From Alphaproteobacteria bacterium (GTDB lineage: Bacteria; Pseudomonadota; Alphaproteobacteria; UBA828), in contig CAXXVO010000007.1 of the NCBI GenBank assembly GCA_963422645.2, positions 808,542 through 872,541 of the forward strand: DNA of 64,000 nt, written 5' to 3'. The position numbers and the translations under genes are program-made. Of the stretch, positions 1 through 6,538 are shown in pieces (the first letter of the stretch is position 1; every line of letters starts with the position of its first letter). The notes under the pieces are model-generated. The model did no database searches, was not told where the DNA came from, and saw only the letters and a program-made list of their open reading frames with translations.

Positions 1-127
1 TGCTGATGACCGAGCCCCCGCGCTTGAAGCGCGCCCGGTCGGTCGGGTCTCTGCGGTAGCCGAGGGCGGCGGCGACCCGGTCGAGGGGGATGTTGCGGCA
101 GGTGGCCAGGGGATCGCCGCCGCTCAT
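1..127 (-). CDS. 5' part of a probable primase-like (DUF3991/toprim-type) protein, runs off the window
   Basis: ATG at 127 (minus) reads MSGGDPLATCRNIPLDRVAAALGYRRDPTDRARFKRGGSVIS..., open to the edge; follows the helicase gene; N-terminus resembles DUF3991/toprim proteins from memory only. Confidence 0.45.
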   Translation of the reverse strand, partial: MSGGDPLATCRNIPLDRVAAALGYRRDPTDRARFKRGGSVIS

Positions 128-168
128 TGCCGGGTCCCGGCGAAGGTCTGCTTGGAAGGGAGGCTGAC

Positions 169-229
169 GGCGTTCCCGTTCCTGTACCCTTCAACGCTTA
201 AGAGTTCCGGGAACGGGAACGGGAACGCC
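169..229. repeat. Iteron-like palindrome, putative replication origin
   Basis: 14-bp perfect inverted repeat GGCGTTCCCGTTCC (169-182)/GGAACGGGAACGCC (216-229); GGGAAC x3 at 209-226; A/T-richer spacer. Confidence 0.55.
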
Positions 230-1228
230 TCATCCCGCACTTCCGTTGATGGCGGCAGGGGATTGCGGCTCCCGGTGCGCCTCGGCGGCTGCGAGGCGAT
301 AGCCACCCCTGGGCGCCCGTTCGATGCGCCCCTCCCTGGTGAGGCTCTCGATGGCGGCAACGACGGTGGCGTTGCGGGCAGCGGCGCGTGAGCGGATCTG
401 GGCTTTCGAGAGCGGCTTTTCGGCCTGCTCGATCGCCTTGAAGACGCGCTGCTCGACGGTGGCGGGCTCGTGCCTGTCTTCATCTGCCGCGTCCTGGTGC
501 AGACGGAAGGCCGGCCCATGTCCGCCGTCGACGAGTTCCAGCTCGATGTCGTTGAGGCCCCGGGCGTCGCGCTGCTCGACCGTCATGACGATCTTCTTGT
601 CGCGCCGGCGCAGGTACAGATTTGAGTCACCCCAAGCGTGCAGCTCGCTGCTCCCGCGCAGGGCCTGCCCCGGCCGGGTGCCGCCGCTCTTGCGGGCGTG
701 GTGGACGAGGAGGACGGCGGTTTCGAAGCGGCGCTGCAGTTCGCGCAGGAAGCCGAGGATGGGGGCGATCTCTGCGACGGCGTTCTCGTCGACGCTGTGC
801 AGGCGGACCAGGGGATCGAGGATCAGGAGGCGCGGTTCGATGCGCTCCACGGTCTGCTGCAGGCGTTGACGGTCGCCGGGCCGGTCGAGACGCAGGGTGG
901 GCACGTCGATGACGGCGATGTCGAGTTCGTCGAAGGGGGTGGCGGCGGCGCGGGCGATCCCCTGCAGACGCTTGCGCACCCTGTGGCCGGCGTCCTCGGC
1001 GGCGAAGAGCAGCACGGTGCCGCTTGCGCTGGGGCGGTAGTGGCGCAGGCATGGGACGCCGGTGGCCACGGCGACGGCGAGATCGAGCGCGAGCAGGGAT
1101 TTGCCGCACTTGGGCTCGCCGCCGACGATGCCCACGGCCTGCTCGGCCCACAGCGTGTCCACCATCCACTGTTGCGCCCGGGGGCGATCCTCGAGCTGCA
1201 TCGGCGCCCGTGTCGGGAAGCCCTTCAC
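230..1228 (-). CDS. AAA_25/RepA-like (SF4) helicase-ATPase with C-terminal winged helix
   Basis: GTG at 1228 overlaps the upstream stop (GTGA); Walker A GEPKCGKS, Walker B LLILDP, LLVHHARK and LRGSS motifs typical of RSF1010 RepA-like helicases. Confidence 0.85.
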   Translation of the reverse strand: MKGFPTRAPMQLEDRPRAQQWMVDTLWAEQAVGIVGGEPKCGKSLLALDLAVAVATGVPCLRHYRPSASGTVLLFAAEDAGHRVRKRLQGIARAAATPFDELDIAVIDVPTLRLDRPGDRQRLQQTVERIEPRLLILDPLVRLHSVDENAVAEIAPILGFLRELQRRFETAVLLVHHARKSGGTRPGQALRGSSELHAWGDSNLYLRRRDKKIVMTVEQRDARGLNDIELELVDGGHGPAFRLHQDAADEDRHEPATVEQRVFKAIEQAEKPLSKAQIRSRAAARNATVVAAIESLTREGRIERAPRGGYRLAAAEAHREPQSPAAINGSAG

Positions 1229-2058
1229 CGCCGTGCCCTCTTCGGCTTGGCGGGCTCGCCCAGGATCTCCATGAAGAGCTTCTCGTCGAGAACCTCGCGG
1301 TTCTTCTCGGCGCCGGCGGCGAGCAGCATGTCGCCCATGACGGTAAGCGCCCTGGGGTTGCCGCCGGCGTGGGTGACCAGGGTGTCCTTGAGCTCTGCGC
1401 TCATGAGGCCCGGATTGCCGGCCTGCTCGACCAGATGGTCGAGCAGGGCCGCGAGGTCGCCGGCGTCTGCCTGGGTCATGACCAGGCGCTGGCGCAGGCG
1501 CGAGGCGATGGGCTGCAAGTCGGGCTGGCGGAGCCTGTCGATCAGGCGGCTGTCGCCGGCGAAGACGACCGAGAGGATGGCGCGCGAGTCGAAGTCGGTG
1601 GACGCCAGCAGGCGGATCTCGGAGATCACCGAGGGCAGCAGCTCCTGGGCCTCGTCGATGAGCACCACGGGCCGCATGCGGGTGTCGTCGACATGGGTGA
1701 GCCATCGCTCGCGCAGGTTTTTGAAGCTGGCCCAGCGGTTGTTGTACATCAGGTCGACGCCGAACATCCCGCCGATCTCGCGGTAGAAGTCGGACAGCCT
1801 GGAAGAGGGGTGGGTGATGGCACAGACCCTGAGCCCGTCCGAGCGGCCGAGGCGGTCGGCGAGCACGCGCAACGCCACGCTCTTTCCGGTGCCGGGCTCG
1901 CCGGCGATCAACGCGAAGCCGCCCTGGCGCACAAGATGATGCTCGATTCTGAGGCAGAAGCTGTCGACGGCGGGGCTCACCATGAGGCTGTCGACCGGAA
2001 GGTCGGTGGCGAAGGGGTTCCATTTGAGCCCGTAGAAGGTGAGCAGCTCGCGGTTCAT
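1225..2058 (-). CDS. ExeA/AAA_22-type ATPase (transposition helper)
   Basis: FYGLKWNPF N-terminus, Walker A GEPGTGKS, Walker B VVLIDEAQ, GGNPR; ATGA overlap with the transposase. Confidence 0.9.
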   Translation of the reverse strand: MNRELLTFYGLKWNPFATDLPVDSLMVSPAVDSFCLRIEHHLVRQGGFALIAGEPGTGKSVALRVLADRLGRSDGLRVCAITHPSSRLSDFYREIGGMFGVDLMYNNRWASFKNLRERWLTHVDDTRMRPVVLIDEAQELLPSVISEIRLLASTDFDSRAILSVVFAGDSRLIDRLRQPDLQPIASRLRQRLVMTQADAGDLAALLDHLVEQAGNPGLMSAELKDTLVTHAGGNPRALTVMGDMLLAAGAEKNREVLDEKLFMEILGEPAKPKRARR

Positions 2059-3533
2059 GACGGATCTCCCTGATCGTCGTCCTCGCCCGGACCGGGCGTC
2101 TTGTTATGGGGTACCCAGGCCGGCGGCAGGCCTGTTGCGGCCTGGGCGTCGAGCACGCCCTTGAGCAGCGGCGGAAGTTCGCCGACGCCCGCGCTGGCGC
2201 CGCCATGGTCGCTGCCGGGTCTCGCAGGACGGCGGACGCCATCGGCGTTGCCGCGCTTGTCGAGGGGGTACAGCGTGCACAGCCGCTCGCCGCTTCGGCC
2301 TTCCACCAGATCGACGCCGCTGAGGTCCCAGCGCGCATAGCGGACCCAGAGCGTCCTCAGGTGGCGCCACGGCTGTGGCACCTGGTAGCGGATGCCCTCG
2401 ACCGAGACGGTGCCGTCCGAGCGCCTGAGCGTGCGCTTCCTGGCGATGCGGAAGGCCGCCTTGAGCTCGTCCGAGGCGGGGCAGGGCCTCGATGCCTTGA
2501 CGCTCCCGGCGAGGCGTTCATGCGGCGTCATGCCGAGCTCGCGGTGCACCCGCCGATGGTAGTCCTGCTCCAGCCAGGCTATGGTGGCGTCGTTGAGCAT
2601 CTTCAGGGTGAGCGCGTCGACGCCTTCGAGCTGAGCCATCAGGCGGCCCTCGACCGTGCCCCAGAACGACTCGATTTTTCCATTTTGATGGGGGCTGTAA
2701 GCGAGTGTCGTGGCCCCCACGATGCCGATGAGGCGGTGCAAGCCCTCCTCGACCTCGCCCGCCGTCATCGGCCCGCCGTTGTCGGTCAGCAGGGACCTGG
2801 GCAAGTCCCTCTTCATGAAGGCCTGACAGAGCCCGTGGACGAAGACCTCGGCGGTCTCCTCCAGGTACCACTGCAGGTGGCAGCCAAGCCTGGAGTGGTC
2901 GTCGAGGAAGCCGAGCAGGATGGGCGTCTGCCATTCGCCCGACGCCGTCAGCACGCGGCGCTTGCCGTGGTGGAAGTCCCCGTGCCACAGCGCGTGACTG
3001 CGAGACACCTCGTAGCTAAGGACCTCGCGGGCTTCGACCGCCGGCTTGTCCTCACCCTCGTGCCACTTCCTGGGGCGCTCGCGCACCAGGCCGCGATTGC
3101 GCATCGCCCGCGTCAGCGTCGCGTAGGACGGCATCGGGCCGAGCTCGGGATGGGTCGCAACATGAGCCTTGAGGGTCTCGTAGTGGAGCTGCGCCGCCCA
3201 CGAGGGATGGACCCGGTACTGCTCGCGCAGCGCCGCGATCAGCCCCGCCGACATGGACCGCTCGCGGCCGACGTCGGTCCGAGGCTTCCGGCGCAGCGCC
3301 TTGACCGGGTCCTGCTCCTCTGCCCGCGCCCGGTAGTACCAGCGCTCGATCGTCGAGGCCGCAAAGCGCACCGGCCCCTTGCCCGACGGGTGCTCCCAGT
3401 CGCGCTGCGACAGACGCTCGAACTCGGCCCCCAGCTGGCCTGCAGGCGGCGGTGAAGCCAGAAGCGGCCCCACCACCGCAAAGCGCAGCCGGGCCCACTT
3501 CTCGCGCCTGGCGCCTGCGTCGTCCTTGTCCAT
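2055..3533 (-). CDS. DDE transposase (rve/Mu-like C-terminus)
   Basis: WHGDF...FLDDHSR...LTDNGG...NGKIESFW catalytic pattern; N-terminal HTH; C-terminal RRSDGTVSVEGIRYQVP; GGAGG-type RBS before ATG 3533. Confidence 0.9.
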   Translation of the reverse strand: MDKDDAGARREKWARLRFAVVGPLLASPPPAGQLGAEFERLSQRDWEHPSGKGPVRFAASTIERWYYRARAEEQDPVKALRRKPRTDVGRERSMSAGLIAALREQYRVHPSWAAQLHYETLKAHVATHPELGPMPSYATLTRAMRNRGLVRERPRKWHEGEDKPAVEAREVLSYEVSRSHALWHGDFHHGKRRVLTASGEWQTPILLGFLDDHSRLGCHLQWYLEETAEVFVHGLCQAFMKRDLPRSLLTDNGGPMTAGEVEEGLHRLIGIVGATTLAYSPHQNGKIESFWGTVEGRLMAQLEGVDALTLKMLNDATIAWLEQDYHRRVHRELGMTPHERLAGSVKASRPCPASDELKAAFRIARKRTLRRSDGTVSVEGIRYQVPQPWRHLRTLWVRYARWDLSGVDLVEGRSGERLCTLYPLDKRGNADGVRRPARPGSDHGGASAGVGELPPLLKGVLDAQAATGLPPAWVPHNKTPGPGEDDDQGDPS

Positions 3534-3582
3534 TCCGGCATCCCTCCCTCGCCGCATCGGAGAGATGCCCATGTAGAACGCC

Positions 3583-4200
3583 CTATCCGGGCGTGACAGG
3601 AACACTTTCTGCGGGCGGCGCCGAGCCATCGCCGAGCCCGCAATAGCCCGTCCACGGCTTGAACCAGATCAGGCTCAGGAACAGACGCTCACCGAAGCGT
3701 CCGCCCCGCATCTGCCGCAGCACGAAGAGCAGCGGCACCTCCTCGGGTGGCATCACCAGTTCGCCACGCTTCGCTCCCCAGGGCTCCGTCGCCGGGAACG
3801 CCTCCAGCCACCACTTCCGCCAGCGGCGCAGTGTGGCGACCGAGACCCCCCACTTCCGCTTGATCGTCTGCAACCGCACCCCGCCTCTCAGAACCAGTGC
3901 ACTCAACAGAACGAACAGGGCGCCCAGATAAAAGCGGCGCCCGAAGAATCGTACCGATGGTGGGGTCGCTCGCAGGCGGCAATCCGCGCAGCAGAAGCTG
4001 AACCGCCGCGTGCCCTCTTCCCTCAACTCGGCTGCCAGACCGTACGGCTTGCGCGGATACGTCGCGCTGTGCAGCTTGCCGGGGCAGTGTCGGCAGCCCG
4101 CCTCGCGGCAGCGCGCCGCCTCGGCCTCATCGACCTCGCGCAGCCAGGCCCAGACCAGGGCGTTGCAAAGCATGGAGTGGCGGAAAATGTTGTGCGACAT
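3583..4200 (-). CDS. Zn-ribbon + HTH accessory protein of the transposon (DUF6431-like)
   Basis: CRHC and CCADC cysteine pairs, HTH-like VSVATLRRWRKWW; first gene of the operon. Confidence 0.7.
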   Translation of the reverse strand: MSHNIFRHSMLCNALVWAWLREVDEAEAARCREAGCRHCPGKLHSATYPRKPYGLAAELREEGTRRFSFCCADCRLRATPPSVRFFGRRFYLGALFVLLSALVLRGGVRLQTIKRKWGVSVATLRRWRKWWLEAFPATEPWGAKRGELVMPPEEVPLLFVLRQMRGGRFGERLFLSLIWFKPWTGYCGLGDGSAPPAESVPVTPG

Positions 4201-4248
4201 TGGGGCCGTCTCTGGCGATTGTGACCGTCACCACGAGACAAAGCCCCC

Positions 4249-4273
4249 CGGCGAACTTCTTGCAAGTTCGCCG
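4249..4273. promoter_or_regulatory. Palindrome upstream of the transposon operon (operator or hairpin)
   Basis: CGGCGAACTT-cttgc-AAGTTCGCCG, 10-bp perfect stem about 50 bp upstream of ATG 4200. Confidence 0.4.
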
Positions 4274-4329
4274 AGGGGCACCCGCCCCAAAACCTCAACA
4301 AATCCGAGCGGATCAGGCCCCGATCCCCG

Positions 4330-4965
4330 CTGAAAGACCGCGCGCGCTCAACGGCGCCCACGCCCGGAACCGTCCGCGTCCACAACGAGAGCGAGACCTG
4401 GCAGCCCCTCGCCCCCGACCTCGGCGGCCGCGACCTCGACGCAACATCCCGCCTCTTCCGCAACCACCTGCTCGGCGGCGCCGGCATGCCCGAGCACTGG
4501 TTCGGCGGCGGCGGCGACGTCAACCGCGCAACCGCCGCAGAGATGGGCGATCCCGCCTTCAAGACCCTCAAGATGCGCCAGAGGCTGTGGACCGAGATCC
4601 TGCGCCGGGCCGCAGACTACGCCATCGCCCGCAGGCTCGACCCCTCCGGCGCATCATGGCCCGATCCCGCAGACCCCGCCCTCGCCGTCTCCGTCGAATG
4701 GCCCGAGATGGTGGTCGCCGACGCCTCCCGACACGCCGCCGCGCTCGCCCAGACCGCAGGCGCCGCGGCGCTGGCCATCGAGCGCGGCCTGCTCTCGGAC
4801 GCCACCGCGCTCCGCGTCATCGCCGCCGTCGCCGGGCGCCTCGGCGTCGAGATCGACGCCGACGCCGAACTCGAGGCGGCGCGCGAAGACGCCGCCGGAC
4901 GGGCCGAAGAAGACGCCTTCCGCGAGCCCCCGCAGGACGAGGACGCCGACGACGGCGAGGCGTAG
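4330..4965 (+). pseudogene. Phage portal protein, C-terminal fragment
   Basis: Frame stays open upstream of ATG 4486 (PGTVRVHNESETW...RLFRNHLLGGAGMPEHWFGGGGDVNRATA) with no start codon; lies directly before a head morphogenesis gene. Confidence 0.65.
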
Positions 4966-4968
4966 CAC

Positions 4969-5904
4969 GTGGCTACCGACCGTCAGCGCCAGCACAGGCT
5001 CAAGGGCGAGCGATCCCGCCGCGCCCGCGCCCTGCCCCGCATCCAGAAGGACACCGCCGCCGAGGTCGGCCGCATCCTCGGGCGCGCCGAGCGCGACATC
5101 CGGGCCACCCTCGCCGGCGCGCCCTCCGATTACCAGGCATGGGCGCTGCCATCCCTCCAGGCCTCCGTCCGGGACGCCCTCGACAGCCTCGGCGCAGACG
5201 CCGGGCAGGCCATGGCCGAGGGCGCAACCCGCGCCTGGGACGCCGGCATCGATACCATGGACGCCCCCGTCGACGCCGCCATGCGCCTCGATGCCCCCGA
5301 CTTCCGCATCGCCGCCGTCCTGCCCGAGGTCGACACCCGCCAGCTCCTCGCCATGCGATCCTTCCTCACCGACAAGATGAAGGGCGTCACCGCCGCCCTC
5401 GCAGACCGCGTCAACACCCAGCTCGGCCTCGCCATGACCGGCTCGGTCCCCGTCGGCGAGACCACCGGACGCGTCGCCGCCATCCTCAAGAGCGGCCGCT
5501 CCCGTGCGCTCACCGTGATCCGGACCGAGCTCGGCCGCGCATACTCCATGGCCGGACAGCAGCGCATGGAGCAGGCCGCCGGGATCCTGCCGGGGCTGAG
5601 GAAGCAGTGGCGACGCTCCGGAAAGCTCAGAAGCCGCATCGCCCACGACGCCGTCGACGGACAGACCAGGGAAGCCGCCAGGCCCTTCGACGTCGGCGGC
5701 GCTTCGCTCATGTACCCCCGCGATCCCGCCGGACCCGCCGCCGAGACGATCAACTGCGGATGCCAGTCGCTGCCATGGATGGAAAGCTGGGAGGTCGAGA
5801 ACCCCGGGCGAAAGCCGTTCTCCGACGAGGAGATCGCACGCGACCCGCGGCGCGCCGATCTCGAAGGGAAGGAGGCCGGCGCGGGGACAACGCCGGCATC
5901 GTAG
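4969..5904 (+). CDS. Phage minor head/head morphogenesis protein (Mu gpF/SPP1 gp7 family)
   Basis: RALTVIRTEL, KQWRRS..SRIAHDAVDGQ, LMYPRDP..ETINCGC motifs. Confidence 0.85.
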   Translation: MATDRQRQHRLKGERSRRARALPRIQKDTAAEVGRILGRAERDIRATLAGAPSDYQAWALPSLQASVRDALDSLGADAGQAMAEGATRAWDAGIDTMDAPVDAAMRLDAPDFRIAAVLPEVDTRQLLAMRSFLTDKMKGVTAALADRVNTQLGLAMTGSVPVGETTGRVAAILKSGRSRALTVIRTELGRAYSMAGQQRMEQAAGILPGLRKQWRRSGKLRSRIAHDAVDGQTREAARPFDVGGASLMYPRDPAGPAAETINCGCQSLPWMESWEVENPGRKPFSDEEIARDPRRADLEGKEAGAGTTPAS

Positions 5905-6047
5905 ACCGGGCGAGGCGAAGCCCCGCGCCGCACCCCGATTTACCGGCGAATCCGCACCCCCGGAACCGCCCCGATTTACAGGCCTTTCAGCACCCCTGAA
6001 ACGCCCCGAAAATCACCGTTTCCAGCCAATTCACGGCCCTTTCCGGG

Positions 6048-6174
6048 CCGGATTCGCAAAGACTTTCGTCCGGCCCGCCAGACCCCGGAAACGCCGCCAA
6101 CCCCTTGACCGTCCGCCTTCTTCCGCCTTCTTCCCGGCATCTTCCGGATTCGCAATGACTTTCGTCCCCCTACA
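6048..6174. repeat. Transposon/Mu-like prophage end: two transposase-binding repeats and terminal CA
   Basis: CCGGATTCGCAA(A/T)GACTTTCGTCC at 6048-6071 and 6144-6167 (1 mismatch), followed by CCCTACA ending at 6174. Confidence 0.6.
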
Positions 6175-6538
6175 CAGGGTGCGGTGCGCGGCGCGCTCCG
6201 CCCGCATGACGCGATTGCCGCGCCCGCGACCCTTCAGGCGCAGGAGACACGCGTGCGGGACTCCTGATTTCGCGCGCACGACGCTGCGCGAGCGCGCGAC
6301 CCACTCATCCCACTTGAATCCCACTTATCCCGCGAATCCCGCATAAAATTTTTCGCCCTCCGCATCGCGGCCCCGCGCACGACTCTGCGGGCGGGCGCAA
6401 CGTCGCCTCCGGCCCTTACCAATACCTGCACCGGCGGCGTCTCCGCCGTAGTTGCCGAAGCGAGGCGATGGCTGATCCCGCCGAGCTTGACCCTGTCTCC
6501 GGCGATAACGCGCACAGGTACCCCGCTAAGCGGCCGGC

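Follow-up and report, generated by a model that had tools for sequence, protein, structure and literature searches.

Several DDE elements combine an rve-type transposase with a dedicated ATPase, including Mu (A/B), Tn552, Tn5053 (TniA/TniB), Tn7 (TnsB/TnsC) and IS21 (IstA/IstB). To our knowledge, none of the five encodes a primase or a helicase. The start of replication during replicative or copy-out transposition is poorly understood and is thought to need host restart proteins. The left edge of a 64,000-nt stretch of an alphaproteobacterial genome (the window; contig CAXXVO010000007.1, positions 808,542 to 872,541, or G000:C8:808542-872541, G000 being the source genome) holds the right-hand 4350 bp of a transposon that shares this transposase-ATPase pairing. 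To it are added a RepA/DnaB-like ATPase, an inverted repeat array and a probable primase.

The best plasmid matches of its transposase, at 47.7% identity over 95% of the length, are the Tn6049 proteins of the P. aeruginosa plasmid pHS87a and of the replicons of Cupriavidus metallidurans CH34, which carry the RefSeq label 'IS481 family transposase'. According to two reports, Tn6049 is 3.5 kb long and present in 12 copies in C. metallidurans CH34, each with a gspA-like ATPase gene (PMC2864759), and it has 12-bp imperfect inverted repeats beginning with TG and 4-bp direct repeats (PMC4739549). On pHS87a, its genes run in the order of a 181-aa 'transposase', a 479-aa transposase, a 277-aa AAA ATPase and a 90-aa open reading frame (ORF). 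The first three are collinear with genes of the window's transposon, at 41, 48 and 50% identity, respectively (tblastn). Both elements end in TG..CA and have short, imperfect inverted repeats; the target duplication is 4 bp in Tn6049 (PMC4739549) and 4-5 bp here. The core of the new transposon, namely a Cys-rich protein with a helix-turn-helix (HTH), a DDE transposase and an AAA_22 ATPase, is assigned by sequence to the Tn6049 family. What follows this core differs: Tn6049 closes with its 90-aa ORF, whereas the 5.2-kb element has a helicase gene, repeats and a primase gene in its place. The 90-aa ORF has no tblastn match in 59 metagenome loci (L101-L159; L-numbers denote individual loci).

The sole related precedent found in print is IEE, a PrimPol-helicase reported to act at the copy-out replication step of circle-forming insertion sequence (IS) families, including IS21 (bioRxiv 10.1101/2023.06.07.543989). 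IEE has a PrimPol of the archaeo-eukaryotic type, its gene is not part of the IS, and its effect is to promote excision (abortive transposition), whereas the primase of the present transposon is of the DnaG type and is encoded by the element itself. In the open literature, ISfinder and subscription journals lying outside the search, no description was found of a DDE transposon or insertion sequence with a primase or helicase gene of its own. Self-synthesizing mobile elements such as casposons, Polintons and pipolins bring their own replication proteins; these combine a protein-primed or primer-independent family-B DNA polymerase with Cas1, a retroviral-type integrase or a tyrosine integrase. 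The transposon described here differs from them in having no polymerase, only a helicase and a primase.

The element is read here, tentatively, as an active Tn6049-family DDE transposon with an added replication-priming kit that would serve the replicative step of transposition. This kit would consist of a RepA/DnaB-like helicase, an inverted GGAACG array and a zinc-less DnaG/T7-type primase. We regard this reading as the leading one, at slightly less than even odds.

Extent, genes and copies of the transposon

The contig was read leftward past the window start, and element boundaries were taken from a self-BLAST of the region against its own genome (44 high-scoring segment pairs). The transposon corresponds to a 5192-bp repeat at C8:807700-812891, or -841 to 4350 in window coordinates, and all five genes lie inside its ends. 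An earlier, sequence-only reading of the window had given the span as 1 to 4333, which these repeat boundaries replace.

All five genes are co-oriented on the minus strand. First in the operon is the Cys-rich (Zn-ribbon-like) HTH protein (3583-4200), with an HTH_23 match (E 1.8e-3) that is below the cut-off. Look-alike clusters in a protein atlas partly carry DUF6431/HTH, which serves as a lead only. The DDE (rve-type) transposase is encoded at 2055-3629; its true start is likely M33 at 3533, since relatives are 491-492 aa long. Matches to rve, rve_3 and HTH_32 fall below the Pfam cut-offs, the match to NCBIfam IS481 (NF033577) reaches 109.9 bits under a curated cut-off of 224, and Mu-transpos_C was not detected by Pfam. 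The third gene (1225-2058) specifies the AAA_22 (ExeA/GspA-like) transposition ATPase, with 69 bits in Pfam and a match to PHROG 296 at E 6e-19. The PHROG matches of the transposase and ATPase are to Mu-type transposase and 'DNA transposition protein' families.

The fourth product (230-1228) is an AAA_25 RepA/DnaB-like ATPase and putative superfamily 4 helicase, at 125.6 bits against a Pfam cut-off of 27. Directly after its stop codon comes the inverted repeat array (169-229, minus strand), composed of three CGTTCC units, a 33-nt spacer and two GGAACG units. The last gene, here called ORF5, is a DUF3991-Toprim primase gene of 289 aa that spans -742 to 127 (C8:807799-808668), with its first 42 codons at 1-127 of the window. 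The ATGA overlap of transposase and ATPase (2055-2058) and the GTGA overlap of ATPase and helicase (1225-1228) are both real, and the GTG start of the helicase is supported by the agreement of its homologues' N-termini. The sequence-only reading had described this co-oriented row, its last three genes joined by ATGA/GTGA overlaps, followed by a palindrome and a further ORF start. All of these are found as described, and the ORF that starts at 127 is complete in the extended contig.

Between the first gene and the right end lies a palindrome with 16-nt arms and no assigned strand (4243-4279, or 6784-6820 of L002), which may be an operator or a barrier to read-through. The transposon contains no resolvase, TnsA or TniQ, and a search of Rfam with it and three four-gene relatives gave nothing at E<=0.1.

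Eight uninterrupted copies, the window's own included, are present in the source genome at 99.8-100% identity. Four more retain both ends and are split by other insertions (IS-interrupted), and about 20 further copies are truncated pieces, some nested in each other. The copies occupy about 30 unrelated sites. By tblastn at 95% identity or more, full-length gene copies number 24 (Cys/HTH protein), 14 (transposase), 16 (ATPase), 19 (helicase) and 21 (primase). At C6:430794-436755 and C3:162385-166181, copies are inserted into, or truncated by, their own kind, an arrangement that speaks against strong target immunity. Two otherwise near-identical primase copies (C3:59105-59971 and C4:4119-4985) have an in-frame TGA, and some copies are therefore decaying.

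The transposon ends are TG..CA, starting with TGAGCGTGCGC on the left (at -841, 99 bp beyond the primase gene) and finishing with GCGCGCGCTCA on the right; 10 of 11 positions match. The right end (4293-4350, minus strand) bears the terminal inverted repeat TGAGCG[C/T]GCGC and, in subterminal position, TCGGATT-TTGA-G in common with the left end. Among the 12 two-ended copies of the source genome, perfect target-site duplications (TSDs) of 5 bp flank three and of 4 bp flank two; seven have none.

The same five-gene transposon occurs in G008, a related genome of the same genus (as are G014, G005, G011 and G004), in 12 copies. Eleven of these are intact at 5185 bp, with duplications of 5 bp in four, of 4 bp in four and none in three. 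G014 has one copy, and the G008 and G014 elements show a mosaic of per-gene identities to the window's transposon (66-91%). The five-gene order with shared ends and TSDs, which the sequence-only reading envisaged in other genomes, is thus present in G008, and the gene order in G014. Its joint treatment of ATPase and helicase also holds: the eight intact copies of the source genome and the 11 of G008 enclose all five genes, with no element end between these two.

The primase, the helicase and the repeat array

ORF5 scores above the Pfam cut-offs for DUF3991 (41.6 bits) and Toprim_2 (37.4 bits), and its AlphaFold (AF2) model has a predicted local distance difference test (pLDDT) score of 87.5. 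A sequence search of the PDB with ORF5 returned nothing. With the model as a Foldseek query, all 40 PDB matches at E<=1e-3 are DnaG-type primases, the best being 2au3 (E 4.8e-7). They include the zinc-binding and RNA polymerase domains of the Aquifex primase, T7 gp4, Twinkle, T4 gp61, and the DnaG proteins of E. coli, B. subtilis, S. aureus and M. tuberculosis. Other Toprim proteins (JetD, topoisomerase I, RecR) match only at E>=1.5e-2. Structural alignment pairs the N-terminal domain with the zinc-binding domain of 2au3 and 1nui. In an alignment of ORF5 with 25 relatives (A1), D251 of the DxD motif and D280 of the KDWN motif are invariant and D253 is nearly so. The Toprim glutamate, E201, is near-invariant, being replaced by Lys in one row, the IS21-borne copy of G005. 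By fold and catalytic residues, ORF5 is a probable zinc-less DnaG/T7-type primase, in line with the sequence-only reading, which had proposed a primase from the letters at 1-127. Current annotation names the helicase and primase 'AAA family ATPase' and 'toprim domain-containing protein'.

The plasmid proteins nearest to ORF5 (30-38% identity) are C-terminal parts of MobV relaxases, and one 2.9-kb Paracoccus plasmid encodes nothing but a MobV-DUF3991-Toprim protein. Other plasmid relatives are stand-alone 'DUF3991 and TOPRIM' proteins of mobilizable or conjugative plasmids, and a cyanobacterial relative forms the C-terminus of a 1942-aa TraI-like protein (helicase). Conjugative primases occur in such relaxase/helicase settings, as in RSF1010 MobA-RepB' and RP4 TraC.

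For the helicase, the only PDB entry recovered by sequence is RSF1010 RepA (1g8y, E 1.9e-8). Its model (pLDDT 74) has DnaB (2q6t) and RepA (1g8y) as top Foldseek matches (E 8e-10), and its PHROG matches are the helicase parts of phage primase-helicases. The invariant positions are the Walker A motif GxxPKxxKS, K41/K44, D139, E149, H177/H178, R180, K181 and R192. At the C-terminus, residues about 259-313 are modeled as the helix-helix-helix-strand-strand pattern of a winged helix. Relatives are scarce outside chromosomes: PLSDB holds only four plasmids with one, all at 35% identity or less, and IMG/VR yields two distant ones (28-30% identity) and no primase relative. A predicted complex of helicase and primase scored 0.00, which weighs neither for nor against binding.

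This protein set resembles three known replication systems. RepA of RSF1010 (IncQ) matches the helicase in both sequence and fold, the primase domains of T7 gp4 and Twinkle are the top fold matches of ORF5, and P4 alpha is a helicase with a DNA-binding domain beside short repeats, an arrangement that recurs here. In contrast to RSF1010, P4 and T7, the helicase and then the primase are encoded here by separate genes, without zinc ligands and inside a transposon. RSF1010 also has a RepC-type initiator, whereas none of the five ORFs matches a RepC-type iteron-binding initiator in Pfam or NCBIfam. The modeled winged helix of the helicase may provide DNA binding in its place.

The arms of the palindrome at 169-229 are GGCGTTCCCGTTCC and GGAACGGGAACGCC. 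Its predicted fold as single-stranded DNA (ssDNA) has an energy of -24.1 kcal/mol (z = -4.1), which none of 200 shuffles equals. Relatives keep the array, not as a perfect hairpin but as inverted 6-7-nt units of variable number and spacing. The repeat unit changes in all copies of an array at once, taking the forms GGAACG, GGTAACG, GGAAACG and GGGAACC. In 12 of 12 relatives with at least 64% helicase identity, the four residues that start the predicted recognition helix pair one-to-one with this unit. RNA[T/S] goes with GGAACG (the window's own element, L015, L023, L105 and L106), RPAT with GGTAACG (L026, L101, L103, L104 and L107), RATT with GGAAACG (L024) and RNTT with GGGAACC (L051). The pairing cuts across similarity in the ATPase domain: L101 is 87% identical overall and has RPAT/GGTAACG, whereas L105 is 68% identical and has RNAT/GGAACG. 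The array goes with the helicase and not with the primase, since nothing comparable to the hairpin was found near the primase of helicase-less elements. Initiator-helicases with a DNA-binding domain beside inverted short repeats are exemplified by SV40 T antigen and P4 alpha, and by analogy the array is probably a docking site for the element's helicase and is a candidate origin.

Primase genes on four transposon backbones

Of 41 related genomes, 11 (the source genome included) contain relatives of ORF5, often in several copies, and all 11 are members of a single genus. In G005 (11 copies), G011, G004 and once in G000 (C22), a primase relative of 47-49% identity ends a 4.2-kb IS21-family element, the IstA of which contains Mu-transpos_C_2 and the IstB of which scores 192 bits. 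The instance in the source genome (C22:64440-67722; L019) is an IS21-type element with IstA 77% and IstB 87% identical to those of the G005 element and a primase 49% identical to ORF5.

When one genome per species was screened with the A1 profile, 351 relatives were found. The best 78 loci, which come from 40 assemblies, were sorted by tblastn searches with seven query proteins. In 66 of these 78 best loci, the primase is part of a DDE+AAA+ element, and these elements fall into four architectures. Class A (seven loci) is the Tn6049-like core with helicase and primase. Class B (37 loci) combines a distant rve transposase, AAA_22 and the primase in about 4.1-4.3 kb, its rve/HTH_32 and AAA_22 domains being confirmed by Pfam. 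IS21 elements have the primase in either co-oriented (class C, 15 loci) or convergent (class D, seven loci) position. The other 12 loci have no recognizable neighbor; several of these are cut by contig ends and three encode fusion proteins. No other IS family was found beside the primase among the 78 best loci with the seven queries. Comparison of copies within genomes places the primase inside the repeat boundaries in each class. It is always at the element end and is often translationally coupled to the ATPase. Judging from record titles, hosts of the transposon-borne primase are Alpha- and Gammaproteobacteria, Acidobacteriota, Verrucomicrobiota and Chloroflexota, with many sponge-associated metagenome-assembled genomes, so that primase-bearing transposons occur in at least four phyla.

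A maximum-likelihood (ML) tree of 61 distinct primases sets the transposon-borne forms apart from plasmid and fusion forms. It has at least seven changes of backbone class, against a minimum of three. An approximately unbiased (AU) test rejects a single origin of class-A primases with p = 9.6e-7, the group being named by its backbone and chosen after the tree was seen. As reconstructed from this tree, the primase has switched backbone repeatedly among ATPase-assisted DDE elements. Class A (13 of 13 rows) and class D retain the catalytic residues E201, D251, D253 and D280 together with a basic pair (R179/K180). Class B mostly does so as well, with the catalytic residues present in 17-20 of 20 rows; single substitutions occur in both D and B.

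A conserved TTCCAAG[C/T]AGA motif precedes the primase start by 29-105 nt (at about 140-160 of the window, minus strand) and is also found in L101, L104, L107, L024, L026, L112, L027 and L064. It is present in Tn6049+helicase and in IS21-convergent elements, and is missing from elements in which primase and ATPase genes are coupled. The motif may act as a promoter, or as a recognition site carried along with the primase gene.

Possible roles and genomic setting

In the replication-priming reading, the transposase and ATPase would produce the strand-transfer intermediate, in the form of a single-strand bridge (copy-out) or of a Shapiro fork. The helicase, the winged helix of which would most likely dock on the GGAACG array just downstream of its gene, would then open the element from this internal site, and the primase would lay primers on the displaced strand. 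Copying of the element would then not have to await the host restart primosome (PriA/DnaB/DnaG). The sequence-only reading had proposed a candidate self-replicating transposon. Its anatomy was right, and the proposal is strengthened by the pairing of iteron and winged helix; replication itself, together with binding, unwinding, priming and any effect on transposition, is what we infer.

The repeated acquisition of a primase within one family, here along with a helicase and its probable docking site, points to pressure to control the start of replication. The five-gene system is compact and lends itself to genetic dissection of the replication step. Sponge-associated and other environmental bacteria hold many such elements, at 10-20 near-identical copies per genome, and this abundance matters for genome plasticity and repeat annotation.

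Several observations weigh against a role in replication priming. The kit is optional. A metagenome search with the transposase as query found 80 loci. At 75% transposase identity or more, the helicase is present in seven of seven and the primase in four of seven; two carry the helicase and no primase although their contigs run on for 1 kb or more, and the seventh locus is cut. At 38-60% identity, 12 of 26 informative loci have the helicase and 14 have none. The conservation of both genes beside homologous transposases, which the sequence-only reading had foreseen, is thus seen, though not universally. In four-gene relatives, homology to the window's transposon ends just past the repeat array. 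Because Tn6049, with neither gene, reaches 12 copies in CH34 (PMC2864759), the kit is judged dispensable for mobility in the family. The four-gene relatives have their own hairpin-rich conserved tail of about 200 bp after the array (L103 4440-4560, L105 9430-9560, L106 2990-3120), for which Rfam has no match.

The proteins themselves raise further objections. RAD51/RecA, RadA and KaiC match the helicase model within about one to two orders of magnitude of its top matches. The N-terminal domain of ORF5 (FFDHLxGxGGGGAIDLVIHA) contains no Cys/His zinc ligand set, and the protein stops after Toprim, with no C-terminal helicase-binding domain. Between relatives at 41-48% helicase identity, the pairing of recognition motif and repeat unit is not a clean code. 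Since the winged helix adjoins the repeats, plain linkage could yield the co-variation. In the main IS21 co-oriented clade, Lys replaces the Toprim Glu in 14 of 16 rows, Thr stands in for D253 in 15 of 16, and the R179/K180 pair has been lost; from these residues, the protein is predicted to be unable to act as a primase. The elements that carry it (L016 7647-8567; L052-L070, L084, L087) are still multi-copy, with up to 11 identical copies per genome.

The copies also fit other histories. Many lack a TSD (7 of 12 in the source genome), and recombination among the roughly 20 copies explains these as well as replicative events would. When the flanks of the TSD-less copies were compared reciprocally by eye, a single 5-mer matched, which is the level of chance. 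A right-end-to-left-end junction is absent from the source assembly. None of the circle junctions that the sequence-only reading had envisaged in reads is listed among Logan contigs, which drop rare forms, so that circles may still exist. In Logan run X1, element contigs have a word depth of 426-457 and flank contigs of 11-13, word depth not being copy number. A joint of 1364 to 5974 in the read contigs was set aside, as one of its sides is only 23 letters long.

A second idea is that the DDE transposon is also a minimal replicon, in which the helicase would recognize an internal iteron origin through its winged helix and, with the primase, replicate the element either on the transposition intermediate or as a free circle. 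We consider this unlikely. If it were correct, primase-bearing IS21 and rve/AAA_22 elements would constitute a widespread and undescribed class of 'self-priming' transposons spanning at least four phyla, and would be the prokaryotic DDE counterpart of casposons and Polintons. A more explicit form of the idea is an episomal phase, in which a circle would replicate from the iteron palindrome by means of an initiator-helicase and a primase and so rise in copy number before reinsertion; this is somewhat less probable still. A helicase with a DNA-binding domain, cognate inverted repeats and a primase would make a complete initiation kit, one that resembles the logic of P4 alpha and of RSF1010 RepA/RepB', and the small Paracoccus plasmid indicates that a primase of this type can serve a minimal replicon. 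However, the transposon has no partition or copy-control genes, the assembly has no end-to-end junction, relatives lacking the kit are equally multi-copy, and plasmids with a helicase relative are limited to the four distant ones in PLSDB.

On a par with an episomal phase in its low probability is a role in targeting, in which the DnaG-like protein would be an adaptor that steers the transposase-ATPase complex to forks, lagging-strand gaps or conjugative ssDNA. TnsE, which steers Tn7 transposition, is the model for such an adaptor. The IS21 co-oriented clade, which keeps the gene and remains multi-copy after losing the catalytic residues, is what such an adaptor would predict. Among the 78 best loci, every transposon recognized beside the primase has a target-selecting AAA+ ATPase, and the primase's nearest relatives outside transposons are parts of conjugative relaxase/helicase proteins. 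In contrast, retention of the E/DxD/D residues in classes A and D and in most of class B argues for catalysis, and exchange of the primase between the unrelated ATPases IstB and AAA_22 speaks against a co-adapted contact.

The helicase and primase might instead be plain cargo that contributes nothing to transposition, such as a module for defense or addiction or an acquired piece of a plasmid. The optional presence of the kit is compatible with this, as is a domain-level PADLOC match of ORF5 to the DnaG-like part of a defense-associated reverse transcriptase (DRT) model (E 3e-9). Against it, the same small primase has been captured repeatedly by four DDE+AAA+ backbones, always at the element end and often in translational coupling to the ATPase. 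In addition, matches to defense libraries are at the domain level only, none covering a whole protein, and the ORF5 model matches primase folds and not nuclease Toprim folds. Passenger status is accordingly thought improbable, more so than targeting.

That the element is a phage satellite integrated by a transposase and exploiting neighboring head genes, as the sequence-only reading had suggested on seeing the transposon abut phage head genes, is very improbable, given copies at about 30 unrelated sites, flanks of this copy that come from unrelated contexts, the lack of primase and near-lack of helicase relatives in IMG/VR, and the absence of phage-type integrase, packaging, capsid-remodelling, hijacking or repressor genes from the 5.2 kb.

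The adjacency of head genes, which was seen correctly, results from insertion or rearrangement in a prophage-like repeat. The portal C-terminal fragment (4486-4965; PHROG 10963) and the MuF-like head-morphogenesis protein (4969-5904; PHROG 2468) are part of a separate multi-copy repeat that lies outside the transposon. Pfam identified no family in the large ORFs to the left of the transposon. The two flanks are multi-copy repeats with 92-98% identity (window 4351-6175 on the right; C8:804491-807700, or L001 14491-17700, on the left), and the right-hand unit has at least six full-length copies. The window's own transposon copy has ACGG on both sides, a match that may reflect chance or a target preference. 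This copy sits between unrelated sequences, because other copies of both flanking repeats continue differently exactly at the transposon ends, and it has probably been rearranged. Two other transposon right ends (C8:253270 and C13:70743) abut the same right-hand repeat family at other positions, and this repeated abutment hints at target preference or nesting.

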